The notes: generated by a model not told the origin, from the letters alone. A DNA stretch of 64,000 nt from Botryllus schlosseri (GCA_051294905.1 CM119371.1:9860001-9924000), one strand, 5' to 3'; shown: positions 411 to 25,762, numbered from the stretch's first letter. Made by a program: numbers and translations.

Positions 411-502
411 ATTCATTTTGTAATAGCCTTGGCTTTTAAAGTCATCTTGCAAGCACTCACGAACGTGACCAAACGTCACCTTGTTTTCCCAGTTCGTTTT
501 AC
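411..502 (-). CDS. ITLN: Intelectin-like gene, coding exon 5 (GKTNWENKVTFGHVRECLQDDFKSQGYYKMN); gene continues beyond window start
   Basis: Resembles the intelectin segment GNWxNxxTFGxxxxxxxDDYKNPGYY. Bounded by cag acceptor (503-505) and gtaagt donor; phase-1 start matches the upstream exon. Confidence 0.85.
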
Positions 503-1363
503 CTGGCAACATAGCGAATATAACCTCAAGAGCCTGTTGGAGGTATAGATCTTCAATATGAAATTGAATGGTGTATTCATATTGAAATGTGACCCGAATA
601 TTTGACTGACACTCGTCAGGGCACTCAGTGGTAATTGTCAACAATTATAGTAGAGAGTTTGAAAGAGCATTGTACATCAACATTCGTATCACAATATATG
701 ACCTCACCGGCAAGGAATATTTTATATTCAGGGTGACTAGATTGCCTAATTCAATGTACAATTTTCGATGATACACGGTTACATCGAATAAACTATCAAT
801 ATTTATCACAAATTTTATTCTAAATATCCTGAAATTTTTAATTACGTACCGTTCGCGTTACCGCGGGTTAAGAACGATTCTTTTCGGCGGTATGATATCG
901 AATATTATTGCTAAGTCTCGCAATCACAGTATCAATTCTCGATGATATGCTGCGCCATGCAACTACTAGAAAGACTCGCGATTTCACTATTTTATTGCCG
1001 CCTGACCCACATGTCAAAAAGGTTGCACATGCATGCACTGAACCAAACCAGCTATTTGGTATTACTGCCATTTTCTATTACATTTGGGTACGGGAATTTT
1101 CCGTTTAAATTTTAACAGTCAGTCATTGTAAAATTAAATTACGGGCAACAATATTTACGGAAAAACTTTTTCAACTTCACCTTTCCAAGAGTCGCAAAAC
1201 TGCTGCCAGGACCAGGCCAATATTTTGGTATAGAATATATTTTAACACTGCAAGCATTTTTCCAAGTCTTTCGACTGTACGAACTTCACACTGCAACCTT
1301 CATTATAGCTAGTCAATCGAATAATATGTTTGTACTGCACTGTGCATTCTATTAACCCCGCAC

Positions 1364-1499
1364 CTGTATAATGCGAAGACCTGTCCTTGATGTACGTCGA
1401 CCATCTATCATCGTGGGTACATTTTGCAAGTATGTCACTTTCATGGATACTCGCCACCAGTGTCCAACCACCACCATCTGTTTGCATGTCACAATAGAC
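1364..1499 (-). CDS. ITLN: Intelectin-like gene, coding exon 4 (VYCDMQTDGGGWTLVASIHESDILAKCTHDDRWS...)
   Basis: Fibrinogen-like YCDMxTDGGGWT followed by intelectin-type LVASxHExxxxxKCTxxDRWS. cag acceptor, gtgcgg donor; 136 nt, phase 0->1. Confidence 0.9.
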
Positions 1500-2367
1500 C
1501 TGCACACAAAAACTTATCAGACTGCGTCCCTTTTAATTTAATTGCCCTCTCAAACTCACTAAAGTGGAAAGAATTATTCCGAAACATATGTTATAAATTA
1601 TTTACTCTGTCAAATTTAAAATCGTGCCGTTACGTGTGTTCGTTAACTTAACTCGTCGGGCTATATGGGCTGCATGAACATCAGAGTGAAAACACATTGT
1701 GATTGATTTATTAGCCCAAATACCAAGATATCATTACACCGACATTGCAGCGGCTTATATTTGTGAATCCATATGTTGGCTTCTAAGCATTCGCTAAAAT
1801 ATTGCTGAATTGTTTCATCCTGTGGCGGCCAAACTGGGGCTAATGGATGATTGCACAATTCTCTATCTCGCCAAGAGATACATCCTGATTTTCAAAAAAT
1901 TCTTGCTAAATTTACGTGACTGCACATGGTGTGATTTGATCAATTGAACTATCGAATCGAGTTACGTGCGGCATTGATGACGGACAACGACCTTGATAAA
2001 TTAATCCCGGAGGGGCAAATCACTTTCAACCAAGGGCGGACGATGATTGGTACGAACATTTACAATTGTTTTGTAAAGGTCGTTGAGAAATATTTGAGAA
2101 AAAGAATGCACTGATTTGAAATAAAACGTTGACGACAGAATCACAATCGTGAGAGGTTACATTCATTATCGAAACGTTGATGATATTGGAAAACCTGTAT
2201 GTTTTAGCGGCCGGGCATCGCCTGATGACTGCGAAACTATAGGATGAAATGTCATTACGAAGTTAAAGACGTAAATTTTCCCACCAGTTACCTAACCAAG
2301 TCGAAGTTACGGGGGAATTCGCTTGATCAGTCTGTTGTTTCTGTTATTCATGGTGTTTTTCTACTAC

Positions 2368-2560
2368 AATGATTGTTTACACCAAACCGATATTCTTCAT
2401 TTTGATTCTTTATCTGCCCACATTGAAGACCGCCCACTTGTAATCTCCTTTTAAAAACACCGCTCACGAGGAACAGAGGCCGAGGAGATAGCTAAATAAA
2501 CCTCCTACGCTAATGATGAGATTTTGTAGTAGACCTGGAACCCGTAACCTATTTGTGTGC
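2368..2560 (-). mobile_element. tRNA-derived SINE, degenerate copy
   Basis: Visible similarity to copies at 35742, 41564 and 44288. Confidence 0.55.
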
Positions 2561-2682
2561 AATAAAAGACAATAACACATCGCTATCTTGCTACGGACTA
2601 TGGACAACATTCAGCGAAAAAGGTGACTCAACTACGTATGCTATTTTCCTTGTTTCGGGCCGATACACTGTTGAGTTCTGAC

Positions 2683-3636
2683 TAGGGATGGTGTGAACCT
2701 CTGAAAGGTTCAGGTTCGTGTGAACGTGAACCTTTTTGAAAGGTTCTGTTTGAACACGAACGTGAACCTCATGACGTCACGTGACGTCACATTGCTAATT
2801 TAAACCCCATATTTCAATTAGGTGATTGCCAATATTAATCTACTGTACACGATACCGAGCGACGACTCGGGGCCTCATAATAGCTCAGTACTTAAGTACA
2901 TATTGACGTTTGAAACGTCACCAAATGTATCAACTGGGGCAATCAAATGATATACTAATCCCATAAAATCAGTATCTTGCGTCGCTTTGCCAACAATTTC
3001 GACATGATCGGACAATATATTCGGCGTCTGAGTATTGCCAAATGGATATTCAGCAGAGTGTAAAATGGGTTTCTGTTTCTATACTTGCTACCGATTAACA
3101 AGTTATACAGCAGTATAGCCATCACCCCAGGCGCACGGATTTGGATTTTATGATACAGTATACATATGCAGTCAAGATTGACCCCGTACGCCTGCTAGAT
3201 TTTTACATCAGAAGACGATATCAATATCATTGATTGGTTGAATAAGGATCATATATTGACAAAATACAGTGTATTTCTCTCTTGATGTCATGTGATTCCG
3301 TGTCAAGCTCACAGCACAGAGACACTAAATATGCACAAACGGAAGGCTGGATATTTCGAGCAAACTTTTGTAACAATACAAGTAAATTTTTGAGATTGTC
3401 AAGGGCATGGTCGTTTAGTGTTGAATGTTTTTGCTGCCAGCCCCATGCATAGAGTGGCCCGCAGTTGATAGTCAATAAATTTGAACCAACGATGTTGTAG
3501 TGAAGTGAAAATTGCAATATATGAAAAAGGTTCACAGTACAGAACCTACCAAGGTTCTGTTGTGAACGCGAACCTCAAATTTTCCGAGGTTCACACACAG
3601 AACACGAACGTGAACTTCACGTTCACACCATCCCTA
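2683..3636. mobile_element. hAT-type MITE family A
   Basis: TIR TAGGGATGGTGTGAAC; perfect 8-bp TSD GTTCTGAC; GTGAAC/GTTCAC subterminal repeats; second copy at 33676. Confidence 0.92.
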
Positions 3637-5139
3637 GTTCTGACCAACACACTTGCAGGAAGTATCTCACAGTGCTTTGAAGCCATACCAGCTCTATTTC
3701 AATCACCTATAGCTCCCAGGCAGACCCACAGTGACCACACAACAATATCAATACCTGGTAGATAAATGGTAAGTGAATAAATTCATATTATAAATTTTTA
3801 TTGTTGCGGGTATTAAAAAACTATGTTTGCGATAAGTAGCCAAGACAATTAATAGGTCTGGCTGCTCCGTGTTCGATGAAAAATCAATTTGAGGGCACAT
3901 TTCGTGTTATATGCGATTCAAAAGAAAACAGTGAAACTCAATCTGTCTGTGCAGAATGATGTATAATTGGACATAGGTTGATTCGGTCTCAATTTTACTG
4001 GGAATCAGAATTGGGGAGTGAAGTAACTCAGATGACTGAGTTATGTTTACGGCGGCCTAAATCGAATGTACCTGCTGGATGTGGTCAGCGTTTGGACCAT
4101 CCATGGATATAATACTTTTTGATGTCAGTAATCATGCCGCAAAATGCATCCACGTACTTTCCATTGGATTAAAAACAATTAATCTTGAAAGTCATTGCCA
4201 GACATCATACTATAGTAATAGCGGGTGCAACATTGATATCACGCTCCGATTGATACCTGGTTGGCAGGTCCGCATCTCTCAAAGGTCGGTAATTTCTATG
4301 TTCCAAAAATGAACTAAAATAATTCAAAAATAAGCCGCCATCAAACTCATACGTTCAATTTATATGTTCGTTATAATCATTTGCATTTAATTTTCGTCTC
4401 CGCGACCATCAGGGAGAGGGAAAACGACCCTCTTGGATCGCGGCTCTCAGTTGGAAACCTTTGATATATAGCATATCTGCAGATCCTACTATCGCCTGAA
4501 AGTTGACGTAATTGATGGGAGAGTTCTCCAAGCTCTATAGCAGGGGTTGATAAGTATAGGTCCCGAAGCCTATATATTTGGGTCGTGGCCGCACTAGAGC
4601 GATCTTTTAATATGTATGTAATATTTTCCGAATTTTCGGCAATCAAAAAATTTATTTTCCCATCGCACGATCTTCGAGAGGATACTTTGTTCGTGGCCGT
4701 GTTCATTCATAAGCAGGAAGTGCAGAAAAACGGTCACTTCAATATGGTTTGATCATAAATGTGTGCGGACATTTGTATTGAAATAATTTTTTAATGTCAT
4801 GAGAAGATTTTTCTGACCTTGGCTTCTCTGGAAAGCTGTAACTTGCGTGGATAATACTCGGACATGGAAGAGGTAGATAGGGGCCATAGCTGCGGAACCA
4901 TAAAGTTTTTTTAATGCGCATAAGTTGCAGAAATGATTTTCTCCGTATATTCCTTATTGGAAAAGAACGGTAAATTCCTTATATCGCTTAACACTGTCGT
5001 AGACCATCTGGATGCTTTATTCAAGGGGGGGGGGGAAGGGATATGCTGCGGGTAGATAGGTAGATCATTTATTAAATTCGTCTCACCGGGTAAATTTGAA
5101 ACATTCAAATAATCGGTATGGACAGGAAACGGACGATAC

Positions 5140-5600
5140 GACCGAGTGGTCATCTAGTCAAGCCCTTCCCTAGAGAGCATACAAATTATATCTAACGAGA
5201 CAGACGAACACAACGATAATTTTCAAAAACACAAAAATGGAAGAGATCGGTATAAACGAACAACATACACATAAGAAAGCCATGCTCGAACAGCAATAGC
5301 AACAGTGCATCAATCACAGACCAATAGGTTGATTAGGAGGGTCCAGCAGATAGTCTATCAGTGATTTTTTAAAACCGTTGAAGCTTCGTTCACGAATTGT
5401 AATGGGTATGTTCTTCCAGATGTTAGGACCGGCTAGCAGAAGAGATCGTATTCAGAATTTCTTCTTTACTAAATTTTGGCGGTAATTAGGTGCGGCTGAA
5501 AATCTGGTATTGTGACTATGGGTGGATGTTGATAGTTGTAATTTATCCTCCAAACTAAAAGCAAGCTGTTTATTGTGAAAACGATACATGGATTTAGCTA
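5140..5600 (-). mobile_element. CR1/L2-group LINE 3' fragment
   Basis: Minus translation VAKSMYRFHNKQL...THSHNTR...*IRSLLLAGPNIWKNIPITIRERSFNGFKK resembles the ORF2 C-terminus; contains an internal stop. Confidence 0.7.
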
Positions 5601-6623
5601 CTTAGGTACTTAGCTACTAGGTACGTGAGTATTAGCCACAGGCATGTCTGGGCTGACCCTTTCCGCACCAGGACGCATGAAGACATCAAGTTTATTTGAC
5701 CAACATACGTTTGAGCGAAGAGCGGCGCAAAAAAGATCAGCGGCGATAAAACCATCGCTGGTTGGTCCAAACCCTCGATACTGATATGGCCGATCGTCGA
5801 AATGGTTCTTGCAATCTGAGCCCTGCATCGTACATGTGACCCATCGAGTAGAACAATGCACCCCCATTCGGAAACACCGGCGTCACACATGTTCCATAGA
5901 ACTGTGTTTTGAACAACTTATTGTCTCGACCTTATATATTTCCTACATGCCCGTGAAACCAAGTAACTAACATTAAAATGCATATATTTCGATATGCTAT
6001 GCTTGCCTCGCGAGATGCCAATTAAACTCGCGTTTAGGTCGCAGTGAAAAAAGTTTGAGAACACCACCTTTATAGAATTATATAACAGTGTTTGGATCAC
6101 CAAATGACTTTCGGCTCAAATGTCATTTGGATTTAATTACATTTAATTCAATCCAGAATATATGACAACATAATTTCATTCGAACCTAATATGTCGGCAG
6201 TTGAGAGCATGCCGGTTGGCCGAATATGTTTTGTCTTGCCTGTCGCTGCTGACGGAGTAGAATAGATCAAAACACAAATTGAAATATAATTCTTTAATTT
6301 ACGTATTGGTATCGATGATTTGGTCATTACAATTGCCACGGTCAGGTTCAGAATGATTTGCGAACTAGAACATTTGATGACTTGAACATGACTGACATAC
6401 TACATAAATACTATATATATACACATTCACTTTTCTAAAATGAGTCACACTCGCTGTATGAAACGAGGAGTCAAGTCAAGCTATCAAAAAACGGAACTTG
6501 AGTCATCCAAATATCGAATAATGTTGTCTATTCACGTCTTTCGAATTCGAGGCAGGCTTCGTCGAAAGAGAGGATAACGCTAGAACTCGGTGTCAATATA
6601 CACGCCCATACTATCCTACAAAC

Positions 6624-6741
6624 CTCTCTCAATTCGTTTCTGTCTCCAAGAGCCTCCAATGATTTGATTCCACTGCCTGTGACTCCTCGGTACTTGAGAT
6701 CCAAACATGATTCGAATGTCGACTCGGTCAGCAGCAGTTCA
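6624..6741 (-). CDS. ITLN: Intelectin-like gene, coding exon 3 (ELLLTESTFESCLDLKYRGVTGSGIKSLEALGDRNELRE)
   Basis: Start of the fibrinogen-like domain (SCxDLKxxGxxxSG). aag acceptor, gtttgt donor; phase 2->0 joins exon 2 and the VYCDM exon in frame. Confidence 0.8.
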
Positions 6742-6905
6742 CTTGATTAGATAATGTTACCATCATTTCATGTATTTCAATAAATTTGACATTACATAGT
6801 GTTTCATAGTTTAATCAACTTGCAGTCGTGTATTACAAGCTGGTCTATAGTTCTGGTCAGGCCCTTTCATCGCAGAAAGTTTAGTCTTTGTGGAAGGGTT
6901 TTTCG

Positions 6906-9100
6906 CAGAGGTGGTCAAAGTAGTCAAGAGAAATACTCAAGTAGTAGTAACGACGTGAAAATGTACCTAGGTACGTGTAGAAGTAGTACTTTTAAATGCA
7001 TCCTAATACTTCTTGAAGAAGTATAATTTGACTGACTTAATATCTACTCAAGTAAGTAGATGTGAAAACGGTCGTAATTCGCTCGCGTGAACTGTCAAAA
7101 GCTGCATATTGATCTATGCGGAAGGTGTAGAGAGGTGTAAATGCATCCCAGGATGCATCAATTTTCGATAGATTAAGTATTCGTCCACGTCATGGGATGC
7201 AAATGATATTATCGATATGGAAATCCTTGGTTTTCTCGAACACCCCGTTTAAAAAAATCTCCTCCATATTATAAGGCCCGTAGTTTAGTCGAAAAGCAAT
7301 ATAGAGAAGCGTTATAAGATACGGTGTTAACACTTTTCACGATTAGTATGCGTTAGTAAAAAACTACGCCCGACCGTAAAATTGTCATATGGTGTACTTT
7401 TATTTTCAGAAAATACAGACACTACTACATCTACTTTTATACTTCAACATGTATGTTCTCCAGACAAAAGAACTGAAACTAAGTAGAACTCAAACTAGAT
7501 ACTGGGAATTGATAGAGAAATACAAATACTACTTCTGAACAGCGGAAAATATATTTCATGTCCCTTGTCCAGAATGATTCAATGGTTGTCTGCTAACACA
7601 GGTCTAACGTTTGAAAAAAGTCAGAATTTCCTTTTCCAGATTAGGACACGCCATGGGCTGCTAGATTACGATATTATATAGGTATAATTGCTAGATTGCG
7701 AAACGGTAGTTTCAAACGTCTTGATTGGCCATATTTATTGTAATGAAATATTTCATAGGGGCGACTATCCGGTGTGGACGGTACCACACAGCCCGCTACA
7801 AAAATTATGTTCATCGATACTTCCTTGAAAACAGTGTTGGGATGACTCGAGTCAGACTCGAGTCACCTTTTTCGCATGACTTGACTTGACTCGAGTCACT
7901 ATGCTAAAATGACTTGACTTGACTTGACTCGGCGTATCAGAAATGTGGATTGACTCGTGACTCGGAGCAAAATCCACGAGTCAATTTCAAGTCATCAAGT
8001 TATCGGTGTTGATAAAAATCACTGTATCTTGATTGTTCGTGAAACGCTTGCCTAACCCGTGAGAGCGACTAATCATTCAATGACCGTGCGTTTTACTGAG
8101 CCTCGATTGTTCTCTCACAAATAAATTGACCGCGCACGCAGTGATCGCAGCTTCCTGCTTACGTTGTCGTAACTCTAGTAGTAAAGTAATAGAATAGCAA
8201 AATGTCTATTTCTGTTCTCTGTTCTTACCTTAACCAAACCTCTTGTTTTATTGAAATTAAAGTCGAGTATAGTTTATATAGTCGTCAACCATTGGCGCAG
8301 GCTCGAATGGTATCATATCTATTTGTAAATGGGTAATGTATTGTATCTTATCAATTCCAATTCTCTATTCCCTATTTTTGCTGGTAACTATAAACTGAGG
8401 CTATGCAATTACGTAGTTTAATAGTTCTACGTATATGTGAGCGAAGCAGTGCCTTCTTGCGTGCATATTGAACTCTATATTCGTTCATCGTTTCGGAATC
8501 AATGACTACTCAAACTGTATTTCAGACAGCTAGCAAACTGCAATGACGTGATCATGCCTCATACATACTTCGAAAAGGCAACTTGACTTGAAATGTGACT
8601 TGACTCGTGACTTGACTTGACTTGACTCGACTTGACTCGAGTCACCTTCAAAAATCGAGTGACTTGACTTGACTCGAGTCACCTTTGAAAATCGATTGAC
8701 TTGACTTGACTCGAGTCAAAATGGGCAATGACTCGAAATGACTCGTGACTCGAAGGTAGTGACTTGATCCCAACACTGCTTGAAAACAAATTTGTCACTC
8801 CATATCTACTGTGAGCGAAGCGCGACGAAAATACTGAGCTTCACATAACTTTTATGGAAGGTAAATGTTTGTAGCCTACTCTGTGAAAACAGCCCCGAAA
8901 TTCCTCAGGCTATCTTTCTGATTGGAGGATTAAACTACTTCTCCTTGTCCAACTGAAAATAGCGAAAAGTAAGTATTTCACAAAACATTACGAAGTAAAA
9001 GTAGCGCGAAATAAGATTTACTTGAGTAAGTACCGCAAGTAGCGAACAACTACTACAGTATTTTTAAAAAGTAGAAGTACGTCGTTACTGACCGCCTCTG
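6906..9100. mobile_element. TIR element with AGTAG-rich subtermini hosting a nested MITE
   Basis: TIRs CAGAGGTGGTCA / TGACCGCCTCTG (11/12 match); no clean TSD. Confidence 0.6.
7832..8778. mobile_element. hAT-type MITE family B, copy 1
   Basis: TIR CAGTGTTGGGA; TSD CTTGAAAA; GACTT/GACTCGAGTC subterminal arrays. Confidence 0.93.
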
Positions 9101-9344
9101 TATTTGTCTACTTGACCTAGCACCTAGGTCTGGGGTGGATATAGGTTATGTTCTATTTAGAGGCAGTTTAGGTTCAGTTGATGTGATCAATGTTTAATGT
9201 TTAATTTAAAAGGAAATATTACTCACTCTGACTAACTGTATTTGTATCACTCTAGTAATAAATCAATCCATTCATTTATACCCGGGGTTCACATGCTGTT
9301 ATTAAGATAGAGCCAACGGTAGAAGTAGAAAAGTCCGTATATGG

Positions 9345-10449
9345 TAGGGTTACCAATTTCTGTGACCCGAATTCCGGACACCCTTTAGCGCCCACTAGTG
9401 GATTTCAAAATGAGTTATGACGTCACACCAGTAAGGCTTTGCTCATAGACCAGAGGTGGTCATGATCCGGTTCAGGATTATGTGCCTGTGTGTTGTGTGA
9501 CCGGGACCGAAAGCACATGTTTTCAGCCCCTTCCCGCCCAAATCAACAAAGATTTTGAGCCCATCATAGGGTAATCGATGCAAATTCTGGTTGGGGGCTT
9601 GCTATATGAATCTGGTTTCTATATGCATTATGTCGTTAAATTTTTTGAATCAATTCTGTCAATAATATTGATTGTTCGGTTGTTCCATATATTACTGTAT
9701 AAATAGTTACTACTCTCCGCCCACATGATCAGAGTTGGCGGTAGAACTGGTGGAGGATGATCAGTTCGAAAATACAGGGAGCGTAATTGTACATCGTTAA
9801 GTCATTTTCATGCCCAACCGATAAGATCGTTTATGCCGGTGCGCATCACGGAGCTTTATAAACACCCCACATCCAGTGGTTTCCAATCTCCTATGGTCGC
9901 GACCACGTCTCCAATTTGAAAATGTTCCGTGACCCGGATCAAAATTTGACGAGCTGATTACTAAAAGAAGTCAGCACCTTTTCCCGGATTTACTCACGGG
10001 CTATATTGGAAGCTAATTACATTCAACATGGCAAACGACCCCCACGTTTGAAACCACTATCTTTGAATAAAGCATTTAAACGGCCTTAACGATCTCTAGG
10101 AATATACCGTTCTCCTATAATTGCGATTACAATTAGGCTTATTCCAGTAAATGAAGGTGGTTTTTATTTATATTTTATTGCAGTTTTTGCGATGGTGTGA
10201 TAGTCTTCATATTAAAATCAATAAATGTGAAAGGAAATCGCGCGCAGTGCGAAGAAAAATATCATTCATCAGCAAAAATATTCTTAAAAATAATGTTTTT
10301 ATGTTGATTTACGAAAAAATTATCACCCTACGTCGTCAAATCTTCAAAATTCCGGACATCTGGCATATTTTAGAAATTCCTCCCGGACGCTAGTTTGAAC
10401 CGTGAAATTCCGGACATGTCCGAGAAATTCCGGACGTATGGCAGCACTA
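9345..10449. mobile_element. hAT (Tip100-like) non-autonomous element
   Basis: Ends TAGGGTTACCA / TGGCAGCACTA; perfect TSD GTATATGG; CCGGACA subterminal repeats. Confidence 0.85.
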
Positions 10450-10541
10450 GTATATGGTTATCTCAATTGAAAATTAGTTGATATGGTAAGTATCATTACG
10501 ACTTTGGTCGGTGGTCGTCCTCTGGCTATACTGCTTCTCAC

Positions 10542-10743
10542 CTGCTGTCTCCTCCTGCATTATTATTTCCATTATTAGCCTTTGATGCCAAAGGTATCGT
10601 AACCGCTAGTAGAATTGCAATTGCTAGCAATACGGCGCTCGCTCTCCAAACATTTTTCCAACTTCTCTTTTTTGGCTCTGGTGCAGTTGGTATATCGACA
10701 TTGGCGTACGAATGGTTTATACTTTGCTTCGGGTGTAGGCCAT
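10542..10743 (-). CDS. ITLN: Intelectin-like gene, coding exon 2: cytoplasmic tail, transmembrane helix and stalk (GLHPKQSINHSYANVDIPTAPEPKKRSWKNVWRASAVLLAIAILLAVTIPLASKANNGNNNAGGDS)
   Basis: Open frame between ttttcaaatccag acceptor and gtgaga donor, phase 1->2; basic cluster followed by a ~19-aa hydrophobic run. Confidence 0.7.
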
Positions 10744-11187
10744 CTGGATTTGAAAATGTTTTCAGTTAGAGTGACGCATATTCATTGGTGCCTCACTAGG
10801 TTATTGTTTCTCTGCGCTGTTATTATAGGTAAAAAAGCCGGATTTTCTCTGCCTTGGTGCTTTTGAGGGGTTTTGATGCTCCAACAATATTATTATAAGT
10901 TTTGAGAATCAGTACGGCAGTAGCATTCGATTAATACCAGTTACAGTAAATTTCGAGCTGTTTGTGATGAGTCGGCCGTCTTTGCCTCAACTCTCTTTCA
11001 CACTTTCACTTTCACGTCATACAAAAGTAGCCTATTCTTTGTAAGCTCTCTTGGTGACAATCCACACTTTGAATCGGCAGATGTTTATCGTGTTCTCGTC
11101 CCAGCTGTAGCTTACTTAAAACCCCCATGAATTATAATTTCTGAAATTGATAGCAAGGGAAAGTATCTGATATTGAAAGCGTGTTAC

Positions 11188-11248
11188 CTTTGAGCTCACT
11201 AACCGTTGGTGATGTGATAACCGTAATTTGACTCTTTCTATAGCTCAT
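11188..11248 (-). CDS. ITLN: Intelectin-like gene, coding exon 1 (MSYRKSQITVITSPTVSELK)
   Basis: First ATG after an in-frame stop; gtaaca donor in phase 1 matches the next exon; upstream acceptor at 11366-11368. Confidence 0.6.
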
Positions 11249-12779
11249 ATAGGCGGTGGGGTTGATTAAAGTAATCTGTCAGGAAAACGGCCTCTGAATG
11301 ATAGTTTCCATGGATTCACCAAACTATTGTCTGGTGGGTGCACTTCAACGCATATGTCAGTGTTTCTGGATGAAAGATGTTATAAACTAATCTAAACCCA
11401 TACTCACTTCCCCAAACGCAAGATACCCTATGTTACCCAATAACATACAATTTTCATGGCATATGTAGGAAGAAGCAATTTATCAAGAATAGAGCTAAGT
11501 CGGCAAAAGTACTCACCGCATCTGATATACCCCTAATTCGATCTAGCATATAATGATTTTTGAAGAAAAAAAATGTTAGCCTGTGAATTCAATCTGAAGG
11601 TAAGTGGCACGCAGCTGAGTATCAAACAATATAGGTGGAAAAGTTTGAGAAACACTGCCGTGCATGAATCCATGCGTTTGCATTGAACGGGTTGGCTAAA
11701 TTTGATAAAAGTCGACTTCAAGACATACCATTGAAATATTGAACGTCCTTTTCCGACGACGCGAAATCGGTCGTATGGATAATTTCTCATACAAATAGAA
11801 TTATTTATTGAGTATTTGACGATTACAGAATTCATATCCGTTGCCTGTTCGCCCATAATAATAATCAATTTGATACAGATATTCTCCGGTTATCCATACT
11901 TTTGGATCTTTTTAGTGGCCAGCTTACAAGCCTATTTTGAGTACGCCATTGCCACCCATCAGAGCCGATCATTTCACGGATGTTTAAAATGCCGAGCGAA
12001 GTACTGACGTTGGGAATGTTCTCATCACAGCATAGCCCTACAAGGCAATGACTTCTTTAGGAAACGAGAAGTTTATGGAATTTCATATTTTCATTAATCG
12101 TCGTTTGGTGGAGCCAGTCAATCCTAATTTGTGGTTCTCAAGCTTTACTAACCTATCCAAAACATGTTCGCTAATCCACGAGAATTCGAGGAACCCTAAA
12201 TTTTCACTGAGTCCTTATTCAGAAATCTTACACAGTACACGTTTATCCACGCATCTTATACTATTGTGCTGGTGCGGAAAACACACCGTGCGCATAAGTA
12301 GAGTGGAAAAAGAACAACACTCCTGAAAGAATTTTCACACAAAACTAGAACTTGGAACGCAGGTTAACAACCACTGATCCTGATATGACGGAGTGATAGC
12401 ATTTTAGCGCAGTATAATGCAGGCTAGCTCAGGCTCCATGACGATATTAATATCACAGTACCGAATGTTAATGTGAATTCAGTATCGCACTTACCAGTGC
12501 CGAATGGCCATTATATATGAATTATAACTACGTCACTTTCTGATTTGTAGCATCGTTATTCACATCACTGTTAGAAGTGAAAAGTTATGCATCATATAGT
12601 CACTGTGGAGTCGTCGAACAGGTAGCGCGTGTTCTTGAGGTACTCCCATGAAAATTAGATCTGTAGTCTAGACCAGTGGTTCTCAGCCTTTTTGACCACG
12701 CGGACCGATAAAACTTCAAAACAAATGGTGCGGATCGGTGAATGTTCAAAATCAAAATCAACCCGAAATTCAATTATGA

Positions 12780-13731
12780 CAGTGTTGGGATCAAGTCAGT
12801 ACCTTCTAGTCACGAGCCATTTCGAGTCGTTGCACATTTTGATTCGAGTCAAGTCAAGTCAATGGGTTCACGAAGGTGAATCGAGTCAAGTCAAGTCACT
12901 AGATTTTTAGAGGTGACTCGAGTCAAGTCGAGTCAAGTCAAGTCAAGTCACGAGCCAAGTCACAATTCAAGTCAAGTTGCCTTTTCGAAGTATGAGGCAT
13001 GATTACGTCATTACATTTAACTAGCTGTCTGAAATACAGATTGAGTGGTCATTGATTCTGAACCGATGAACGAATATAGCGTTGAATATACATCGAAGAA
13101 GGCGCTGTATCGCTCACATATACGTAAAACTCAGTTTATAGTTACCAGTCAAATTGGAGAATAGAGAATAGAGAAACGAATTGATAACATGCATAACATT
13201 ATCTGTTTACATATTAATATGATACAATTCATGCCTACGATAAGGGTTGAGGAGTATATAAAACTGTATTCGAATTCGAATTCGATAATTCGATAACAAG
13301 AGGTTTGGCTAAGGTAAGTACAGATAACAGTAATATATATTTTCCATAAATTACTTTACTACTAGTTTAGGACAACGTAAGCTGTAAGTTCCATTCATTT
13401 CTTTTGTGGTCAATTTATTTGTCAGGGTACAACGGAGACTCAGTAAAAAGCACGATCATGGAATGGCTGGTCGCTCTCACGGATTACACCAGCGTTTCGC
13501 GAACAATCCGAACATATGCAATATACAGTAAATTTTATCTGCACCTAGTACTTGATTGACTTGAAATTGACTCGTGGGTATTGTTCCGAGTCACGAGTCA
13601 ATTCACATTTTTGATACACCGAGTCAAGTCAAGTCATTTTAGCAAAGTGACTCGAGTCAAGTCAAGTCATACGAAAATGGTGACTGGAGTATGACTCGAG
13701 TCAAGTCATGACTCGAGTCTTCCCAACACTG
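12780..13731. mobile_element. hAT-type MITE family B, copy 2 (inverted relative to copy 1)
   Basis: Same TIR and body as 7832-8778 in reverse orientation; TSD not retained. Confidence 0.9.
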
Positions 13732-13794
13732 GTGATGCAAATGCATGTAACTCAAATTTAATATTGGGAACTTCTTTTAATGATGCGTGTTTCA

Positions 13795-13884
13795 TATTTA
13801 TACGTGGTGCTATTATAATTACTCCAAGGCGAAGCTCAGGTATTTATACGTGGTGCTATTAAAATTACTACAAGGCGAAGCTCG
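13795..13884 (+). repeat. Two-copy tandem duplication, ~46-bp period
   Basis: tatttatacgtggtgctatta(t/a)aattact(c/a)caaggcgaagctc occurs twice. Confidence 0.85.
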
Positions 13885-14452
13885 AAAAGTCCTGTTGAAG
13901 ACCACTAATTTGATTGTGATTGCTCAGCACCCTTTGAAAGGAACGCGACGTTTGCTATAGCCGGTATTATACTGACACGTGTCGCCTATTGCACTGTCAG
14001 AATTACACGGAGTTTGTTTAAAAGAAGCCGTAGCTTTCACAAATATAGCTTATTCTCAGCGAGTTGTATAGGTTGCTTTAGAACAGTTTCGTACAACACC
14101 TGCACGATTGTGACTTGCGCCTTTAATGGACATCAACTTACTATATAACGACAAAATGCAAAAAAATAGGTTTGAAACTTCTACGTAGTAATTCAAAATT
14201 TGATGTTTTATTTCTCTAATTAGTGGTCAAGCGACTAACTTCTCGCATTTTGGAATTGAGATATGAAATTCTATTTGGCGGACCGGCATGAAACTAGAGC
14301 CACGGACCGGCGGTTCAGAACCACTGGTCTAGACTCTAGAGAAGAGCCCAAATCGCGACGATGGCCGTTGTTGATGTTTGTGATATTTATGCGACTCTCT
14401 CACATTTTTTGGCGTCCGTCCTCGCACTTTCTTGATTAAAATAGCCCTAATT

Positions 14453-14704
14453 TTATTCAAACTTCATCATCTTAATAAGACCGAGCTCTTTCCAGATTTC
14501 AGCGGCTTCCGACACGTAAAACCCTGAACCAATAGTCTATATCTGGAATGTACCGCATGTAACTGCCAAGAATACTCACGTAAAGTGTATGCCTGGCCTG
14601 CACCGCAAAAAGTTTCTTCATACGTAGATTGACCGTTCATGTCTTCGTCGCACTGAACACTAATGATGATGAAAGCGATAGCAATTTATTTTTATAGTCA
14701 TCAT
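14453..14704 (-). pseudogene. Putative small secreted-protein gene (exons 14704-14580 and 14523-14453) with a 1-nt frameshift in an A-run
   Basis: Removing one A gives MMTIKIIAIAFIIISVQC-DEDMNGQSTYEETFCGAGQAYTL|RFYVSEAAEIWKELGLIKMMKFE*; 56-nt gtgagt..ttcag intron is in phase. Confidence 0.4.
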
Positions 14705-16189
14705 GTTTGAAGCCTTTCACAATACATACACACATCATATGTCCCGTAATAACAAACAAATCGTGTTAGAGATGCACAGTGTGGGTGTAGCGCGTGTGGC
14801 AATGATTCATGTAATATGAAGAATGTGTTTGGAATATGCATTAAAAGTTAGTGAATACGTCGGGAAATTTCGAAAATTACCGAAATCGATTTGTTTATCA
14901 AGACATCGCAGAATTACCATTGACTCAACAATGATACACAAACGCATGTGGGTTGTTAAATGGACGCTAACACTTCCGTTTCAAGTTGTGATCTATGTCG
15001 AACTAGGTATTATCATGAATGTATTGTGTCGATTAAACAGCTTTCCTCGTACTCAACGTATAACCGGTCCTTCCGACTTTGTGTGTCATCTCTGTAGTTA
15101 GCTAATATGTGATAGACTCAATAAAAATATGCATGTTACTCTCTGTATCTAATGCATTGTACATCCATTCAGTTTCAACTGGGGATTTGGAAGCCCCCGA
15201 AATCAAACTCTTTACACTCCCGCAGCCACATTCAAATTTATCACTCTAGCTGAAAGTTACTCTTGTCAGTCTTGCGTTACTTTCCTTGTATAGGTTAATT
15301 AATCTCCAACGATTTTCCTTGAAACTGCAAGAAATTCGAAATAAACAATACATATGTAGATCGGAGGTGAACAACGATTTTGTGATGCGGTCCAAATACA
15401 AAAGACCACTATGCCAATGAGGGGCACATGAGTGTGAGCTTTTGACATTTGACATTTTAACGCTTGATTAATGTACAGACGAATACTTGGGCGTGACAAT
15501 AGAAGGAAGATTTCACTATGAGACGAAAACATTCATCGATTACTCACTCGGCGTCAAATATAGTCTCGCCGAACACATATGACAGAATAATGATTAAGTG
15601 GAAAATCGTGAAGGAGTTTCCAAAGCACATTGTGCCTTGACAGTTACTGATCGTATTTTACCAGAGGGGCGCTGACACTAAATTTGGAACAAAGTCTTTA
15701 AGAACTACCAACTTACGCTTTAGCTAGAGTTTTTAGTTTTTCTGTAAATGATTTCAAGTCAGACTGTAAGCTATTAATTTGAACCGTACTTTTTTCATGT
15801 AAAAATAGAAATACGCATAGGACGTTATATACTTTTGTCTTTAATTTTCAGTAGCATATACACTGACTCATGATATCCATACACGCGATATCTGCATATT
15901 CACACCAAGATTGCTGCATGTATGATGTCCATATTCCACTGGTCGAGGAAGAAAGATACGGGGATAACCTTGTACCGTTACCAATCTTGTCCAAACCACC
16001 ATGTTATCCCGGAAATGCCGAGCGTCAAACGGGGAAGTCATTGATACTTGTTTCACTGATGGGTCTTTTATCCGACCTAGTCTGGGACTAAAACTAGCAC
16101 CATGTTGCATGGCTCAGTACTGTTTCTAAATAATAAATGTACTGTTTTATCCTAATGCGTGTGTGCTACATAGTAACACTGTTTACGAT

Positions 16190-18086
16190 CAGGGGTCGGA
16201 AACCTTTTTCGCCCGAAGAGCCATATTGGGTCTATATTTTCCATTGTAACTCCTCCTCCGTCAATCAACTGTTACGTCACAATTGGAAATTCGTAACGTG
16301 ACGGTAACACTAATTCGAAGTCAAATCATGGGATTCGTCGTGTGCGCCATGTTTTCTCTGTAAAAACTAGCACTAATCATGCCTGGTGCCTTTTTTTAGC
16401 ATGCTAAAATTGCGTTACATATTTTAAATTGTGATACAGTGAAAGTCATACGATATTTTTCGAATCCTAAGACAATTAAAACTTGGATATCCACCAGATT
16501 TAGCTAAGAATAAAGGCGTGAATCTGCGATTTACACGCTTATTACAGTGAATGCATGGTGTTGCATGTTGTTACTGATGGGTTTGTAGTCTGGTTGATGA
16601 ATTGTTGAGGTCAAGCTTCATACAAAAGTCGAGACTTTCATCAGTCACACGAGATCGTAGGCTCTCCTTGATGCTAGTTTTAAATACGAGGACCACTGAT
16701 GGCATTCCTATGTGGAAGCAAACAAGGTCACCACAGAAGTACAGATCCAAACTACCGAGTGATACGTCAGTGACGTGGTGTCAGGGGACGCAAATGAGGC
16801 AGTGTCTCACGTGTCATCGGGATGAGCGAAGGAAAATTATGAAATCTTGCACGATTATTGCTACTTTCTATCCATGTTCATGAATTCACAGATTTTGTGT
16901 ATTTTTAGTCTTAAAATCATGCAATTTGCTTATTTATTGTTCGAAAATGAAGTGCGAAAGGAGATGCAGGGCACAGGTGAGGCACATGCATACCAAGCCT
17001 CTCCCGTGATTGCGAAAATCATCGTAACTAGCTGAGAATTAATTAATTAATTAACAAATAATCAATGTAATCGTCGCACTGCATCCAAAAATCTAAATAT
17101 TGATCAACTTCTTAATTCTCAAAGTGTTCGGCGATAAAACATGACTTTGCGCTACACGGCTACATTTCAACGACGGTTAAGCTTAGGGTGGCAATTGGAA
17201 CAAAAATAAATTTAAAACAAACATGTTTAAAAGTATGCCCTGATTTAAAGCATGTTTTTTATTGTGTTTTATTTTGCAATGACGTCACGAATTGGATTGA
17301 CATTGACAATTGAAAATATAGAGTAAATGTAGCTCCTTTGACGAAATATCTGTACTATTAATGTTGAACCGACTTATTTTGTGGATTCCAACCATATCAT
17401 ATCGATATAGGTCGGCTATATCGGCTGGTAATTGTCCGTAGGCTCAAACAACATGTTTTTTTGCAAAGTATGTACAGTGTACACAATTATGGCATAATTT
17501 TACAACTTGAAAAAAAAAATTAAAGCCCTTTCTTTAAAACACTGTTTAAAACGTGTTTTACACGAAGTGTCTTAAAATACCGTTTGTTTTAAATGCAACC
17601 CAAGTTGAGCTATTCATCAATGAAGAAAGTGGATAATTATGGCGTTCTTTATAATTATAATGTATAATTTGGAATGTCACTTTCAATACAGTTCGTTTCC
17701 GCCGTAGATCAAGAAGACAATGCGTATTTCTTCTGCTATTCTCTTTGATCGAACAACGTATCGTGCAATCCACGATTTCGAGCCGCGCGATGTCAGGTGC
17801 ATAATCGAATTTACGAGTGATATTGGTCGAAGGCACGACAGCAACTTACATTTAACGATTATTGGAAGAGGGCTCTGAGACCTAATCCTGGATACGTCAC
17901 TGTCTTTTCCTCTTAAAGACATGTTTCTGCTGCCACGAAAATAATTATTCAGGCCATGCTGCAAATTTACCAACAACTTGCTGCAATATTGATGAATCGG
18001 TAAAAATATAAAAATTTGGCAAAGAGCCATATCTTACACCCGAAAAAGCCATATATGGCTCGCGAACCTAAGGTTCCCGGCCCCTG
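16190..18086 (-). mobile_element. hAT (Charlie/SPIN-like) deletion derivative with transposase C-terminal relic
   Basis: TIR CAGGGGTCGGAAACCTT; GAGCCA subterminal motif; minus 16550-16700 reads IKESLRSRVTDESLDFCMKL..QPDYKPISNNMQHH. Confidence 0.75.
17184..17603. mobile_element. hAT-type MITE family C, nested
   Basis: Ends TAGGGTGGCA / TGCAACCCAA; TSD GTTAAGCT/GTTGAGCT; homologous to 43496-44034. Confidence 0.82.
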
Positions 18087-18291
18087 GTATGAAGAAAGGC
18101 TTGTACGAACAACTGGATAATCAAAATTTGAAAGTAGACCCAGAACCAGAACTAACCACTCTTCAAAATCCGCAACTAGATATCACATTTCAAAGTGCTC
18201 CTATGGAACTATAACTAAAACTACTAACAAAACTCGTAGTTTGTTGTACGTCAACTAACTGGAACGGTAATTTGTACGAGTCGGTATACAG

Positions 18292-19005
18292 TAGGGGTGG
18301 GCAGACCTGCTTTTTGCACCAGCTGCATATCAAAAATCTTAGCAGTAAAAGAGCCACAACACAAAAATTCGAAAATTTATGACGTCACAAGGAAATATAT
18401 GCTTCAAATGTAGTTTATTATAGTGTGTTGATACCGAGCGTCTCCACCTGGGACGCAAAGTGATTGAAACGCGCGGATATGACGTCCAAGCTGTGCGGAG
18501 CAGTTCCTTTAAATGCTGATGAGAATTTAAGGAAGATTTCAGCTCGGTAATCTCGCGACTTATTCTTGGCCAAATTCAGCAGGTATTGCTAGCCTTTACG
18601 ATACAAATGGAAAAGCCGTATTCACCATGCTAGCCCGGAAATTATTGTGACCTTTGGTGGCTTAAATAATTACCAAGTTCATTGTTCAACTTCATGCTTT
18701 ATCATTGATTGATGGCAAGGCAATCATTGCTGCGGGTGAAACGTTCAAGTGAATTCGATTCGAGGCTCTGATTGTAAATTTCTTAAATTTCTTACCCTGT
18801 AGTAGACCTGTCGCATAAATTTTGCAAGTCTTGCGTAAACCACAAGGAAGGACACAACACGAACACAATACGCATATTGTTAAAACGCGATAAATGCATC
18901 AATATATAATTAAGCTCTCTAGCAAAATGGCGAAATGTATGTGCAGTGTGCAATCATTAAAGAGCTGTAATCAAAGGCTAAAAGAGCCGAGGTTTGTCCA
19001 CCCTG
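18292..19005 (-). mobile_element. hAT non-autonomous element with transposase relic
   Basis: Perfect TSD GTATACAG; ends TAGGGGTGGGCAGACC / GGTTTGTCCACCCTG; minus strand reads HQHLKELLRTAWTSYP. Confidence 0.82.
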
Positions 19006-19085
19006 GTATACAGTATCCGTTGAATCGATCGATATCGAAATGCTGTAGGCTAAAATAAAATGTAAAACTAGCATGTGTTTTATAC

Positions 19086-20591
19086 CAGTGGTTCTCAACC
19101 GCCGGTCCGCGACGACATTCCTGCCGGTCCGCCAGGTATATTACAATTACCTTAATTTCAAGAAGCAATTTTGAAGGCTCTCCCATTAGGGCTGTTCAAA
19201 AATAACTTTTATTTTCTGGGTTCCAGCCATTCACTGACCTGCGGAGTCTTATAGTTGTTAGGACATGACCAACTTTGGTGTGCAGCGTTTTTTATGGTCA
19301 CCTGACAATTTAATTAGTGAATGATGTAAGTTATTTTTGAACAGCCCTGTCGCCCATTGATAAAATGAATAAAACATCAAATTTTAAAATGATTCAGAAC
19401 TTCGTGAGGTAACATTAGGGTTGGAAACGTGTTCGATTTGGCTTGAAGTTCAAGACGTGTGATTTGACGACATGCGAGCGACAAGTAGGCTACAGAACAG
19501 ATATGAGCTAAGCAGCGCAGTTTGCGCGATCATTCATTTTCAGTTCATTCATTTTGTATAGGACCGTAACTGGGGCACTCCAAACCACCCAATTGGAGAG
19601 GGGCCGAGCTTGAAAAGAGCCAAAATTATTTTGCAAATAAAACATGGATAACAGTGTATTCTTTTGAAACTTTTTCCAACATTTTTCAATTTCTTTTCGC
19701 CCTTCGCGCGATTTAGTGTCGCTAAATGTCTTGCTTATTAGGTGCCCTTCTCCGGGAAATATACGCATTATTTATGGAAATAGCTATTCGGCGTCGGCCG
19801 TTACCGCGCCATGACTTACCAACACATAATCAAGTTTAGGCTGACATGGGACTCTGAAAGGTGTGCCACAAATACGGCAGTGAGAAAACCGATTCAGTCA
19901 TGAATGACCAAAAATTTTCGCTATTGGCGCGATTAAGCTCCATAAACTCTGCTTACACCGAGCAGAATGAATGTGCTAACAAGTACAGGTGAAAATAGCC
20001 ACCCAACTGTAGGATCTGGAAATGAAATCCCCGGGAGTTTGGCTTATCGCCCTGTGGTGGCCCAAGACCAACGTTTTTAGGGGTTGGCTTACGAAGTGAT
20101 TGTTCGGCCCGTATTTGCGGATTGCCGGTACTCGCCGCATTGCATTCGTAGTTGCCAGACTAGCTTATGTGTCAGGTGGCAGTTAGGAATGAGCAAGGTA
20201 GCACGACAAGGTGCTTGGTTCGACTCCGTAACGCTTCTTCTCTCGATATTGTTAAAGAGAAGAATATTATTCGAGTTTGCGTGGTCGGTTAAGCCCGCGG
20301 CCTTCGGCTCGAAAACTGTAAAAGACTCTCTGCGGTAGCACGTTTATTTGGACAAGGCAATTTTACCTCGACCCAGCAGACTAGCTACCATAAAATCACA
20401 TGGATGCCGTCATAAAGATAGTTAATTGCGATCAAAACCCTATAAATCTCACTCTCCAGCACCATATAATTTCACAAAACGGTTGCATACTTTACATTTT
20501 GGCTTCATTTCAATTGTGAAAGTTCACCGGTCCGCCAGAAATTTTTTAAAATTTTACCGGTCCGCGAGGTGAAAAAGGTTGAGAACCACTA
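19086..20591. mobile_element. hAT-Charlie-like element
   Basis: TIR CAGTGGTTCTCAACC; TSD TTTTATAC/TTTTATGC; CCGGTCCGC subterminal repeats. Confidence 0.85.
19187..19349. mobile_element. 163-bp MITE, nested
   Basis: TIR (T/C)AGGGCTGTTCAAAAATAACTT; TSD TCTCCCAT/TCGCCCAT. Confidence 0.85.
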
Positions 20592-23841: not shown

Positions 23842-24470
23842 ATGTATGTATGTATATTGGGGTTATGGTGCTTAGCAGCTATGGCCTTGTGCACCAGACC
23901 AAAGTGTTATAGGCATGTGTACTAGATTCTACTGCTACATTATAGTTGCCTCTCGGTGAAGAAAGCATAATAAATCACAAGCAAAATTGTGTAAGAGTCG
24001 CCGAGAAGTGACACAAAGTCTATTGGCACATGGTTTCGTAGTGCTATGTCCTTAAAATAGTTACGCTGTGAGCTATATCGAGAGCATTGTAACAAGAAAT
24101 GCCCAACCGTCTCTATAACGCCACATGCTGCACAAAGGCCATCGTCGTGACATTGAATTCTATGTAAGTGCCCGTTGAGTTTGCAATGCCCAGTCTGAAG
24201 CCGTAACAATATTGCTGTTTCCCTGTTTGATAGTCGCAGTGGCTGCGAGATATCACGTGCGGCGTGAATTCGCTTGTAGATATTTTCGGAATCATTCGTT
24301 TCAAATTCGCTTTTCCATCTTTCGTGAGTCAGTTCTTTGATAATTATTTTGGCCTCTTGTAGGAAGAGTGGGATGTCACTGGATGATCGTTGTGTTTGAA
24401 ACGTAGCCGCGTCCTTGGCGAGTTTATCGGCCATACCGTTGAATCCAATCCTGCAGTCACCTAGATATTT
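23842..24470 (-). mobile_element. I-group LINE 3' end (RNase H tail, CCHC zinc finger, 3' UTR, (TACA)n tail)
   Basis: Translation GFNGMADKLAKDAA ... LRLQTGHCKLNGHLHRI...CAACGVIETVGHFLLQC; stop at 23940. Confidence 0.85.
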
Positions 24471-24481
24471 GTGTTCTAGAT

Positions 24482-25762
24482 CACGGGTCGCCAACTCAAA
24501 ACGGGTCGCGGTCCACATTTCAAATTTCGTACAGGCCGCGGGCCGCATGAATTCAACATCGAGATAAAATAGGCCACACAGACTAACAACCAACTTTACA
24601 CCAGTACAACGCTGGGCACTATAACCTGGGCGTCGGGCATACTCTACACCAGGGCCGGCCAACCCGTGGCCCGCGGGCCACATGTGGCCCGCGAGAAGAT
24701 TTTGAGTGGCCCGCGAGGTAATTTCCGAAATTGGTAATATTATCAAAAATGGATTGCACAGATTGTGAACTTGCAAGTCAAACCAAAAAATTGAGATGTG
24801 ATGGCTAAAATATCAGTACCGACGGATTGGCAGATTCATGAGGCAGTCGCATTTTGGTAGATATTCGTACACTACAATAAAGCTGAATAATTTGCGATAG
24901 ATTTATCAAAAGTAAAAATTTTCTACACGCTCCGCGCGACATGTTGTCACTCAATTTCTTCCTCTTAATATTATTACCCCTTTGTGAAAATGAAAGAACG
25001 CCTAATGTATCAGATTGAGTCTAACGATATTCGCGATGACGAGATAAAGTGTCGTCCAACATATGCGACCATGTGTTTGCGCTCGCAGAAGGACCGTCAA
25101 CTATGAAACCTATAGGCACAAAAGGATTGATGCGCGTTGGTCAAAGCTTTCGATATCGATGTGTCCAGGCGCCGAGTGGTCCAGTCTTTGCGAGCTGAGC
25201 CCAGCGATATACAGCAGGCCCGCAATATAGTCAAGTGACAATACTATTGACCTATGAACTTCGCAAAATTTTCGCGCTTCGCGCGGCTAATGGCCTGCGC
25301 AATAGTTTGTTATTCGAATGTAACCCTTTGGCTGGAAAGGTTGGCCAGCCCTGGTCTACACAATAGAAATACTATCTTATTAAAGAAATACAAATACAAC
25401 AAAAATATCATTTTCATCAAGTTCATTTTATTGTTAACTATTAGCGGCGCACGATACCTTCTGAGCAGCGGCTAAAGAATCGATTTCGGGGTTAGCTAGA
25501 CACGGCAGTGTCTGGCTATTCCGCGTCAAGCCAATACGTCCATTCATATCAGTTAATGACTTGCTCCGTGAAATGGTATGAAAAATACTGAAGCTGTATC
25601 AGCTAGTGAGGAATAGTGATGTTGGACACTAGAAGATTGGTTATTTTAAACAGCAGTAACAATATCTCGAAAATGAAATAAATTACGGCATTTCAAAATG
25701 CGATAATTAACGTTCTGTTGAAATCTCAAATCATGCCGCGGGCCGCGTGTTAGTGACCCCTG
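24482..25762. mobile_element. hAT-Charlie-like element hosting a nested MITE
   Basis: Ends CACGGGTCGCCAAC / GTTAGTGACCCCTG; TSD TTCTAGAT/TTCCAGAT. Confidence 0.78.
24650..25353. mobile_element. hAT MITE family D, copy 1
   Basis: TIR CAGGGC(C/T)GGCCAACC; TSD CTCTACAC/GTCTACAC; second copy at 32534. Confidence 0.9.

Follow-up and report, generated by a model that had tools for sequence, protein, structure and literature searches.

A three-copy intelectin-like gene of Botryllus schlosseri predicted to encode a type II membrane-anchored protein with a conserved tail motif

Introduction

Intelectins, or X-lectins, are described as secreted lectins of mucosal defence (PMC12800186), and this description bears out the starting point of a preliminary description of the DNA studied here, that characterised chordate intelectins are secreted. 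Intelectin-1 also goes by the name of intestinal lactoferrin receptor, and the title of a cited paper calls it lipid-raft-associated. The determinant recognised in intelectin ligands is described as an exocyclic diol coordinated by calcium (PMC8185196). Among the open papers and preprints searched, none was found that describes a transmembrane or type II intelectin. Here, we analyze an intelectin-like gene on the minus strand of a 64,000-nucleotide stretch of Botryllus schlosseri DNA (GCA_051294905.1 CM119371.1:9860001-9924000; C1:9860001-9924000 of the 495.5-Mb assembly, hereafter the window). The gene is one of three copies, and it is predicted to join a cytoplasmic tail and a membrane anchor to an intelectin-type head.

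The closest described analogue is FIBCD1, a tetrameric type II endocytic pattern-recognition receptor with a head of the fibrinogen-related domain (FReD) type (PMC10825690, PMC9994688). The two designs would share a small cytoplasmic domain, one transmembrane (TM) helix, and a C-terminal head of the FReD superfamily, the topology of the Botryllus protein being predicted from sequence. They differ in that FIBCD1 binds acetyl groups through a complete fibrinogen C domain, whereas here 19 positions give a sub-cutoff match to Fibrinogen_C and the head is of intelectin type. Further, the FIBCD1 ectodomain includes a coiled-coil and a polycationic region and forms a tetramer, whereas the stalk here is short and unconserved, and the two tails are unrelated. 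The preliminary description had compared the protein with type II C-type lectin receptors. In predicted topology and in logic the comparison is sound, since Mincle and Dectin-1 also combine an external lectin-type head with a short internal tail, but their head has the unrelated CTLD fold, and FIBCD1 is the nearer counterpart. The tails of C-type lectin receptors signal through a hemITAM or by pairing with FcR-gamma, neither of which is seen here.

Compared with secreted intelectins (human intelectin-1, 4WMQ/4WMY; Xenopus XEEL, 4WMO; Ciona intelectin-1b; Clavelina intelectin-1-like), the head is homologous from the first conserved Cys through exon 6. Those proteins have a signal peptide, are exported, and carry a ligand site with E274 and W288/Y297, whereas the Botryllus protein has a predicted tail and anchor and ends before that site. 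Judged from sequence features, it appears to have no cleavable N-terminal signal peptide that would yield a secreted product.

Gene model and coding constraint

The window is eukaryotic in character (GC ~0.39). Five minus-strand exons within it join with phases 1,2,0,1 and have GT..AG boundaries at 4/4 introns (Table 1). The joined exons encode 203 residues, identical to the peptide of the preliminary description, whose five-exon join can therefore be retained. In exon 1 candidate (a), an in-frame TGA lies 11 codons 5' of the ATG. The gene continues beyond window position 1, where two further exons complete the model. The frame of exon 7 runs for 31 codons past a possible donor before reaching its stop, and this extension aligns weakly with the ends of canonical intelectins. 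Because of that alignment, and because no further exon was found, exon 7 is taken as the terminal exon, for a predicted protein of ~336 residues. Searches for additional C-terminal exons by tblastn with five tunicate C-termini gave nothing convincing, either across 20 kb below exon 6 in this copy or across ~7 kb downstream of the corresponding exon of one paralog, and a comparison of open reading frames (ORFs) across ~30 kb returned repeats only. One weak match, C1:9847003-9846941 (E 0.19), lies inside an unrelated Met-started ORF and was discarded. No second intelectin-like gene was found within the 64-kb window.

Table 1. Positions of the predicted exons, protein features, paralogous exons, and related tail-encoding ORFs (window coordinates unless prefixed C1 or listed under a locus of contig 5 or 13)
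Feature	Position	Strand	Description
Exon 1 candidate (a)	11248-11188	-	ATG; 61 nt; donor gtaaca; phase 1
Exon 1 candidate (b)	11128-11068	-	ATG; 61 nt; donor gtgtgg; phase 1
Exon 2	10743-10542	-	202 nt; remainder of predicted cytoplasmic tail, membrane anchor, start of stalk
Tail motif I-N-x-[ST]-[YH]-x-N-V-x-I	10691-10720	-	residues 29-38; Tyr33 codon 10708-10706
Juxtamembrane basic/aromatic cluster K-K-R-x-W-x-N-V-W-R	10643-10672	-	8 residues invariant in 4/4 sequences
Hydrophobic 19-residue segment	10586-10642	-	residues 55-73; predicted type II signal-anchor
Exon 3	6741-6624	-	118 nt; end of stalk, start of intelectin/FReD-type domain with first conserved Cys
Exon 4	1499-1364	-	136 nt; intelectin core C-D-M...G-G-G-W-T-L-V-A-S-I-H-E
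Exon 5	502-411	-	92 nt; intelectin middle region
Exon 6	C1:9859924-9859759	-	outside window, 76 bases beyond window start
Exon 7	C1:9855656-9855421	-	outside window; TAA at 9855423-9855421
Paralog exon 2	C1:9715072-9715257	-	47% identical to this copy
Paralog exon 2	C1:9773336-9773512	-	49% identical to this copy
L020 candidate tail ORF	5568-5999 (contig 5)		long, Tyr-containing; phase-compatible GT..AG to exon 3-like ORF
L021 candidate tail ORF	4017-4394 (contig 5)		long, Tyr-containing; phase-compatible GT..AG to exon 3-like ORF
L023 candidate tail ORF	4338-4709 (contig 13)		long, Tyr-containing; phase-compatible GT..AG to exon 3-like ORF

When the exon 2 peptide was searched against the genome, it matched three places, namely itself and two same-strand copies on C1, and a reciprocal search with a second protein query recovered the same three. 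Exon 3-like and exon 4-like sequence lies 4-4.7 kb downstream of each exon 2 copy, and exon 7-like sequence occurs in these three genes only. Both paralogs have seven exons with phases [0,1,2,0,1,0,1], and all six introns of each copy are bounded by GT..AG. Exon lengths in this copy and the two paralogs are 61/61/61 (exon 1), 202/199/199 (exon 2), 118/118/118 (exon 3), 136/130/130 (exon 4), 92/92/92 (exon 5), 166/163/163 (exon 6), and 140/143/143 (exon 7). The acceptor and donor of exon 2 occupy equal positions in 3/3 copies, and in every copy its coding frame is free of stops whereas each other frame contains 3-5.

The two paralogs stem from a recent duplication (dS 0.12 between them, where dS and dN denote synonymous and nonsynonymous divergence), and this copy is older (dS ~1.3 to them); between it and the paralogs, only exons and dispersed repeats can be aligned. 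Across this older split, dN/dS is 0.27-0.29 for the whole coding sequence (Fisher p ~1e-16), 0.15-0.16 for the ectodomain, 0.27-0.30 for the tail part of exon 2 (Fisher p ~0.027, 32 codons), 0.45-0.54 for the anchor, ~1.4 for the stalk, and >1 for exon 1. Because co-duplication alone would not yield this pattern of open frame, splice sites, and dN/dS, we conclude that exon 2 is a genuine coding exon of an intelectin-like gene. The locus itself is taken to be a real gene.

Tail and membrane segment

The preliminary description placed about 50 residues with no other Met ahead of a basic cluster and a helix of ~19 residues, and this agrees well with the 54 residues counted here before a segment at residues 55-73. 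That segment is the sole strongly hydrophobic 19-mer of the 203 residues (Kyte-Doolittle mean 2.56). Its sequence has diverged in the paralogs and its hydrophobicity has been kept (2.15 in both). Net charge over the 15 flanking residues is +4/+3/+3 on the N-terminal side and 0/-2/-1 on the C-terminal side (this copy/paralogs). As a chance baseline we used the 261 stop-to-stop ORFs of at least 60 aa in the window; ten of these contain a 19-mer with a mean of at least 2.15, and one combines it with the positive-inside pattern. The juxtamembrane cluster directly before the segment is invariant at K, K, R, W, N, V, W, and R in the four sequences aligned below, and the segment is followed by a short, unconserved, N/G/S-rich stalk of ~25 residues.

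Exon 2 of this copy contains no in-frame Met, so the tail must be translated if an anchored or exported product is to be made. A small-residue site of the A-x-A-like type (S-K-A) follows the segment in this copy and is absent in the paralogs. That the site is not kept, together with the necessary translation of the tail, favors an uncleaved type II signal-anchor. Thus, the protein looks like an N-in type II signal-anchor protein rather than a signal-peptide protein, and the anchor claim of the preliminary description finds support in 3/3 copies, each with a basic N-flank and a C-flank lacking positive charge. A short, signal-peptide-like isoform is possible for the paralogs and is not expected for this copy, and the tail may have been added ahead of an older signal sequence. 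A scan of window positions 6742-20000 for ATG-first exons joinable to exon 3 gave eight candidates, none of them a hydrophobic one between exons 2 and 3. Two alternative hydrophobic first exons, 15630-15548 and 18899-18796, were without further support.

Homologs of exon 2 outside the genome are scarce. In a collection of 5.8 billion proteins, the exon 2 peptide matched none of 156 candidates in the "longer" length class and the single candidate (1/1) in the "near" class, P0022, and in 1.84 billion representatives it had two matches at E <= 0.001, P0022 and P0023. The latter, a repetitive hydrophobic protein of 1287 aa with 24% identity, was discounted, which leaves P0022 as the sole outside homolog in both collections. 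It is a 66-residue ORF on a 1104-base contig, is 72% identical to the exon 2 peptide, and is of genomic origin because its frame reads through the same donor. Over the stretch of cluster plus anchor it keeps 36/37 positions, with differing flanks. In an alignment of the three genomic copies with P0022 (A1), the I, N, N, V, and I of the tail motif are invariant in 4/4 sequences, and the motif Tyr is present in all three genomic copies, as Y-A-N-V, Y-D-N-V, and Y-G-N-V. An N-x-[ST] triplet stands directly before the position of the tail Tyr in 4/4 sequences, which is odd for a predicted cytoplasmic segment.

The extracellular head

Membership of the head in the intelectin family is clear from several exons. 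A search with the exon 4 peptide gave 21/38 candidates at E <= 0.001, the best named matches being Ciona and Clavelina intelectins. The same peptide matches Pfam Fibrinogen_C over positions 32-50 just below the cutoff (E 3.2e-4, 21 bits; cutoff 22), and the other single-exon peptides have no Pfam match. Against solved structures, the exon 6 peptide matches only the intelectin family at E < 0.001 (XEEL 8.6e-6, serum lectin 7E1E 2e-4, intelectin-1 6.2e-4 and 7.3e-4). The N-terminal, FReD-like core of intelectins (C-D-M...G-G-G-W-T-L-V-A-S-x-H-E) is present, as is the intelectin-specific middle region (N-W-x-N..T-F-G..D-D-Y-K; W-H-V...Y-R-T..F-L..G-G-N-L).

The final third is another matter. The three copies align well with five tunicate intelectins as far as F-P-I; beyond that point they are divergent and ~60 residues shorter, and in the protein atlas the last exon has a best score of 0.89, to unrelated families only. 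The copies end shortly after a Cys that pairs with H-C-I-G, C-G-D-F..W..Y falls in a gap of what is a low-confidence alignment, and the residues aligned to the C-N-T-E-H-H-C stretch are not kept. Roles are also assigned to N260, E262, and H263 of human intelectin-1. The binding-site residues given for that protein are E274, W288, and Y297 (PMC12800186), which correspond to chain positions 267, 281, and 290 of 4wmq_A (offset +7). The calcium-dependent ligand site, that is, E274 and the aromatic box of W288/Y297, thus appears to be absent from all three copies. The first two thirds of the head are homologous to those of secreted intelectins and its last third is divergent and shortened, so its ligand is probably not the classical microbial exocyclic-diol sugar. 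Because the head ends before the E274/W288/Y297 site, microbial-glycan sensing is unsupported, and the "microbial-glycan sensor" of the preliminary description has to be given up: the ligand-site stretch is missing, and the CNTEHHC-aligned residues are changed.

Related architectures in tunicates

Of the 23 proteins scanned for an internal anchor, including the 21 exon 4 matches, one has such an anchor. This protein (P0009) is the Ciona intestinalis "uncharacterized protein LOC100183062 isoform X2" (XP_026696034.1, 593 aa), a predicted RefSeq model on which a literature search found no paper; isoform X1 is XP_018673201.1 (615 aa). Both isoforms have a Tyr-rich tail of 45-67 aa, including Y-H-D-V and Y-E-E-E-I, then a basic stretch, a hydrophobic segment (Kyte-Doolittle 19-mer mean 2.92, residues 46-64 of X2), and an intelectin-type domain ending in F-Y-R. 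Isoform X3 begins within the TM segment, and a newer short Ciona model, XP_078481407.1, is named "intelectin-1b-like isoform X2". The Ciona protein is like the Botryllus one in its order of tail, TM segment, and intelectin domain, in its C-D-M..G-G-G-W-T-L-V-A-S core, and in Y-x-x-V. It is unlike it in having a head insert of ~250 residues and a complete C-terminus, whereas the head of the three copies is short and ends early. BLASTP detects no similarity between the two tail/anchor regions (E > 2) and lends no support to a by-eye alignment of the tails, and the Ciona tail has no match in this genome. The preliminary description had looked to tunicate and amphioxus orthologs retaining the TM segment and Y-x-N; the Ciona model has the first and does not share the second.

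Within the genome, exon 4-like intelectin matches number at least 49 of 66 candidates scored, with clusters on contigs 1, 5, 7, and 13, which indicates a large expansion of the family. Upstream of eight further intelectin-like loci, we found an ORF with a tail, a basic cluster, and a TM segment in three (Table 1; all heuristic candidates, of which L020 and L021 share the position of the join). Two others, L017 and L019, have a Met and four residues followed by a hydrophobic run, and the remaining 3/8 show nothing clear. With the Ciona model and three more genes here, the anchored intelectin architecture is probably not unique to this locus. A neighboring intelectin-like gene that belongs to the same subfamily (L010/L011, C1:9990993-9999504, plus strand; exon 4 74% identical) lies ~67 kb beyond the window end. 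No long tail is encoded by its first exon, which opens with Met-Asn-Arg-Lys and continues with 24 hydrophobic residues. Its exon 4 ORF has a near-identical counterpart in P0004, a Logan-contig protein.

Other features of the window

An ORF at 60371-60694 on the minus strand corresponds to the C-terminal end of Pfam OATP (PF03137, E 1.9e-14) and probably represents the final exon of a gene for an SLCO-type organic anion transporter. The longest open frame of the window (290 aa, 23943-24812, minus strand) has no Pfam match. In the protein atlas, the clusters closest to it consist of arthropod hypothetical proteins, and 18% of the members of one of them contain RNase_H; the frame is probably a transposon remnant. 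High-copy repeats occupy 2671-3738, 7477-9078, and 12817-13884, in introns and upstream of the gene; their summed contig depth is in the thousands (X1, X3), and RNA reads run from them into unlike sequence. Tandem GAGTCAAGTC-type repeats occur at 7850-8780.

Discussion

The exon structure, the coding constraint, the hydrophobic segment with its charge asymmetry, and the family of the head are direct observations on this locus. The reading that best joins them, to which we assign a probability of roughly 0.68, is a receptor-type architecture, in which the gene is one of three tandem paralogs encoding a single-pass type II anchored protein of the intelectin type, with ~336 residues. A cytoplasmic tail of ~54 residues would lead through the basic/aromatic juxtamembrane cluster into an uncleaved signal-anchor at residues 55-73, and an unconserved stalk of ~25 residues would carry an extracellular X-lectin head lacking the canonical calcium/diol site. 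Splicing in vivo would have to follow the predicted exon joins for this product to be made. The conserved S-Y-x-N-V tail motif would couple the surface protein to the cell interior, most likely as an AP-2-type sorting signal (Y-x-x-hydrophobic) of an endocytic receptor like FIBCD1. That FIBCD1 itself has a type II anchor on a head of the FReD superfamily makes a working endocytic receptor of this design feasible.

Several points weigh against this interpretation. Exon 1 is ambiguous, with two candidates equal in length and phase, both unlike the exon 1 sequences of the paralogs. Its sequence is unconserved, with dN > dS relative to the paralogs and nucleotide alignments scoring 29-32 against a shuffled mean of 28.8 and a maximum of 39; the 61-nt length shared with the paralogs gives mild support, since by a hand estimate ~5% of random ATG-first exon 1 candidates would have it. 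Constraint is weaker between the two young paralogs (dN/dS 0.49), and both have an in-frame Met-Asn-Val-Trp-Arg directly before the anchor (C1:9715165-9715190 and 9773414-9773445). Exon 7 has no intelectin match in the PDB, and the short C-terminal third might not fold or bind. In P0022, the motif Tyr is His. The sequence data inspected, contigs from X1 and X3 and raw RNA reads from X6 and X10 at sampling rates of ~6% and ~13%, also yielded no junction of the model: X6 has no reads on the exon bins, X10 has fractional depth in the bins of exons 3-5 and none in 10681-11748, and no predicted junction is among the 15 joints listed (17 more are unlisted), which gives no verdict either way. X1 and X3 contigs also span introns, as DNA would. 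One X1 contig of 252 nt takes in exon 3 and its intron 3 side (6558-6743), and its match breaks off 2 nt beyond the acceptor of exon 3, leaving 66 letters unplaced; partly spliced RNA and a divergent haplotype are both conceivable sources.

The role of the tail motif is where the preliminary description, which had read it as a Y-x-N docking site, fares unevenly. A phosphorylated Y-x-N is the consensus of the Grb2 SH2 domain, and in a signaling receptor the tail Tyr would be phosphorylated and Y-x-N-V would bind a Grb2-type adaptor to start a kinase cascade. Y-x-N-V is indeed kept in 3/3 genomic copies despite dS > 1, the N at +2 and the V at +3 are invariant in 4/4 sequences although a pure sorting signal would not need both, and the Ciona LOC100183062 tails are rich in Tyr, including Y-E-E-E-I. 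However, P0022 keeps N and V but has His at the Tyr, so the Tyr is not strictly required for the conserved unit. Further, other tail-bearing intelectin-like genes repeat Y-x-x-V (Y-E-M-V, Y-E-P-V, and Ciona Y-H-D-V), and Asn at +2 is absent from the L020, L021, and Ciona tails. Since what recurs is Y-x-x-V without that Asn, we rank a sorting signal above phosphotyrosine docking. The Y-x-x-[LIMFV] sorting pattern is present in the tails, a weak indication given how short and common the motif is. A receptor that signals through Grb2-type docking is on this evidence unlikely.

Two readings dispense with the anchored product. In one, the protein is secreted, with the segment cleaved as an internal signal or one with a long n-region, or with a shorter transcript or a start just before the segment. 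This fits the description of all characterised intelectins as secreted (PMC12800186). Of 13 tunicate homologs examined, 12 either begin with a hydrophobic stretch or are fragments, S-K-A stands just after the segment in this copy, the paralogs have Met-Asn-Val-Trp-Arg directly before it, the neighboring L010/L011 starts with Met-Asn-Arg-Lys and 24 hydrophobic residues, and Ciona isoform X3 starts inside the TM segment. Against it, the Met of the paralogs is Lys in this copy and in P0022, the paralogs lack the small-residue site, and the tail is under purifying selection in its coding frame. Moreover, the 54 residues that precede the segment far exceed the n-region of typical signal peptides, and we regard secretion as quite improbable. 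In the other, the locus is a decaying or unexpressed copy in a cluster of truncated intelectin pseudogenes, and the model is an artefact that takes in a co-duplicated upstream ORF. The head does lack ~60 canonical intelectin residues, exon 7 matches no solved structure, the sampled RNA reads leave exons 1-2 uncovered, no protein of the gene turned up among the 5.8 billion sequences searched, and at least 49 intelectin-like copies make for high redundancy. Yet all seven exons are open with splice sites kept in 3/3 copies, dN/dS is well below 1 over dS ~1.3, and the introns, unlike the exons, can no longer be aligned. The shortened C-terminus is common to the three copies, with the stop 31/29/29 codons past the last strong donor, and is therefore old and tolerated. 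Decay is thus very unlikely, and the anchored, receptor-type protein is the reading we prefer.

A wider idea, which we put forward tentatively and consider more doubtful than the architecture itself, is that tunicates carry an unrecognised class of type II receptors in which intelectin heads are joined to tyrosine tails coupling to endocytosis or phosphotyrosine signaling. Candidate members are at least six genes here (the three copies, two genes of contig 5, and a single one of contig 13), as well as Ciona LOC100183062. The family could have arisen by addition of a tail before an old signal peptide, and the anchored design is probably present but unnoticed in public gene models. If the idea is true, the class would be an invertebrate-chordate counterpart of FIBCD1 and the C-type lectin receptors, and the three copies would form a branch in which the classical sugar site was abandoned in favor of a new ligand; their apparent loss of the site bears on what else the intelectin fold binds. 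The idea can be put to a direct test in Ciona, which is a transgenic model. Some intelectins would then be receptors rather than opsonins or agglutinins, and the sister group of the vertebrates would have built lectin-type receptors on a non-CTLD fold, in parallel to FIBCD1.

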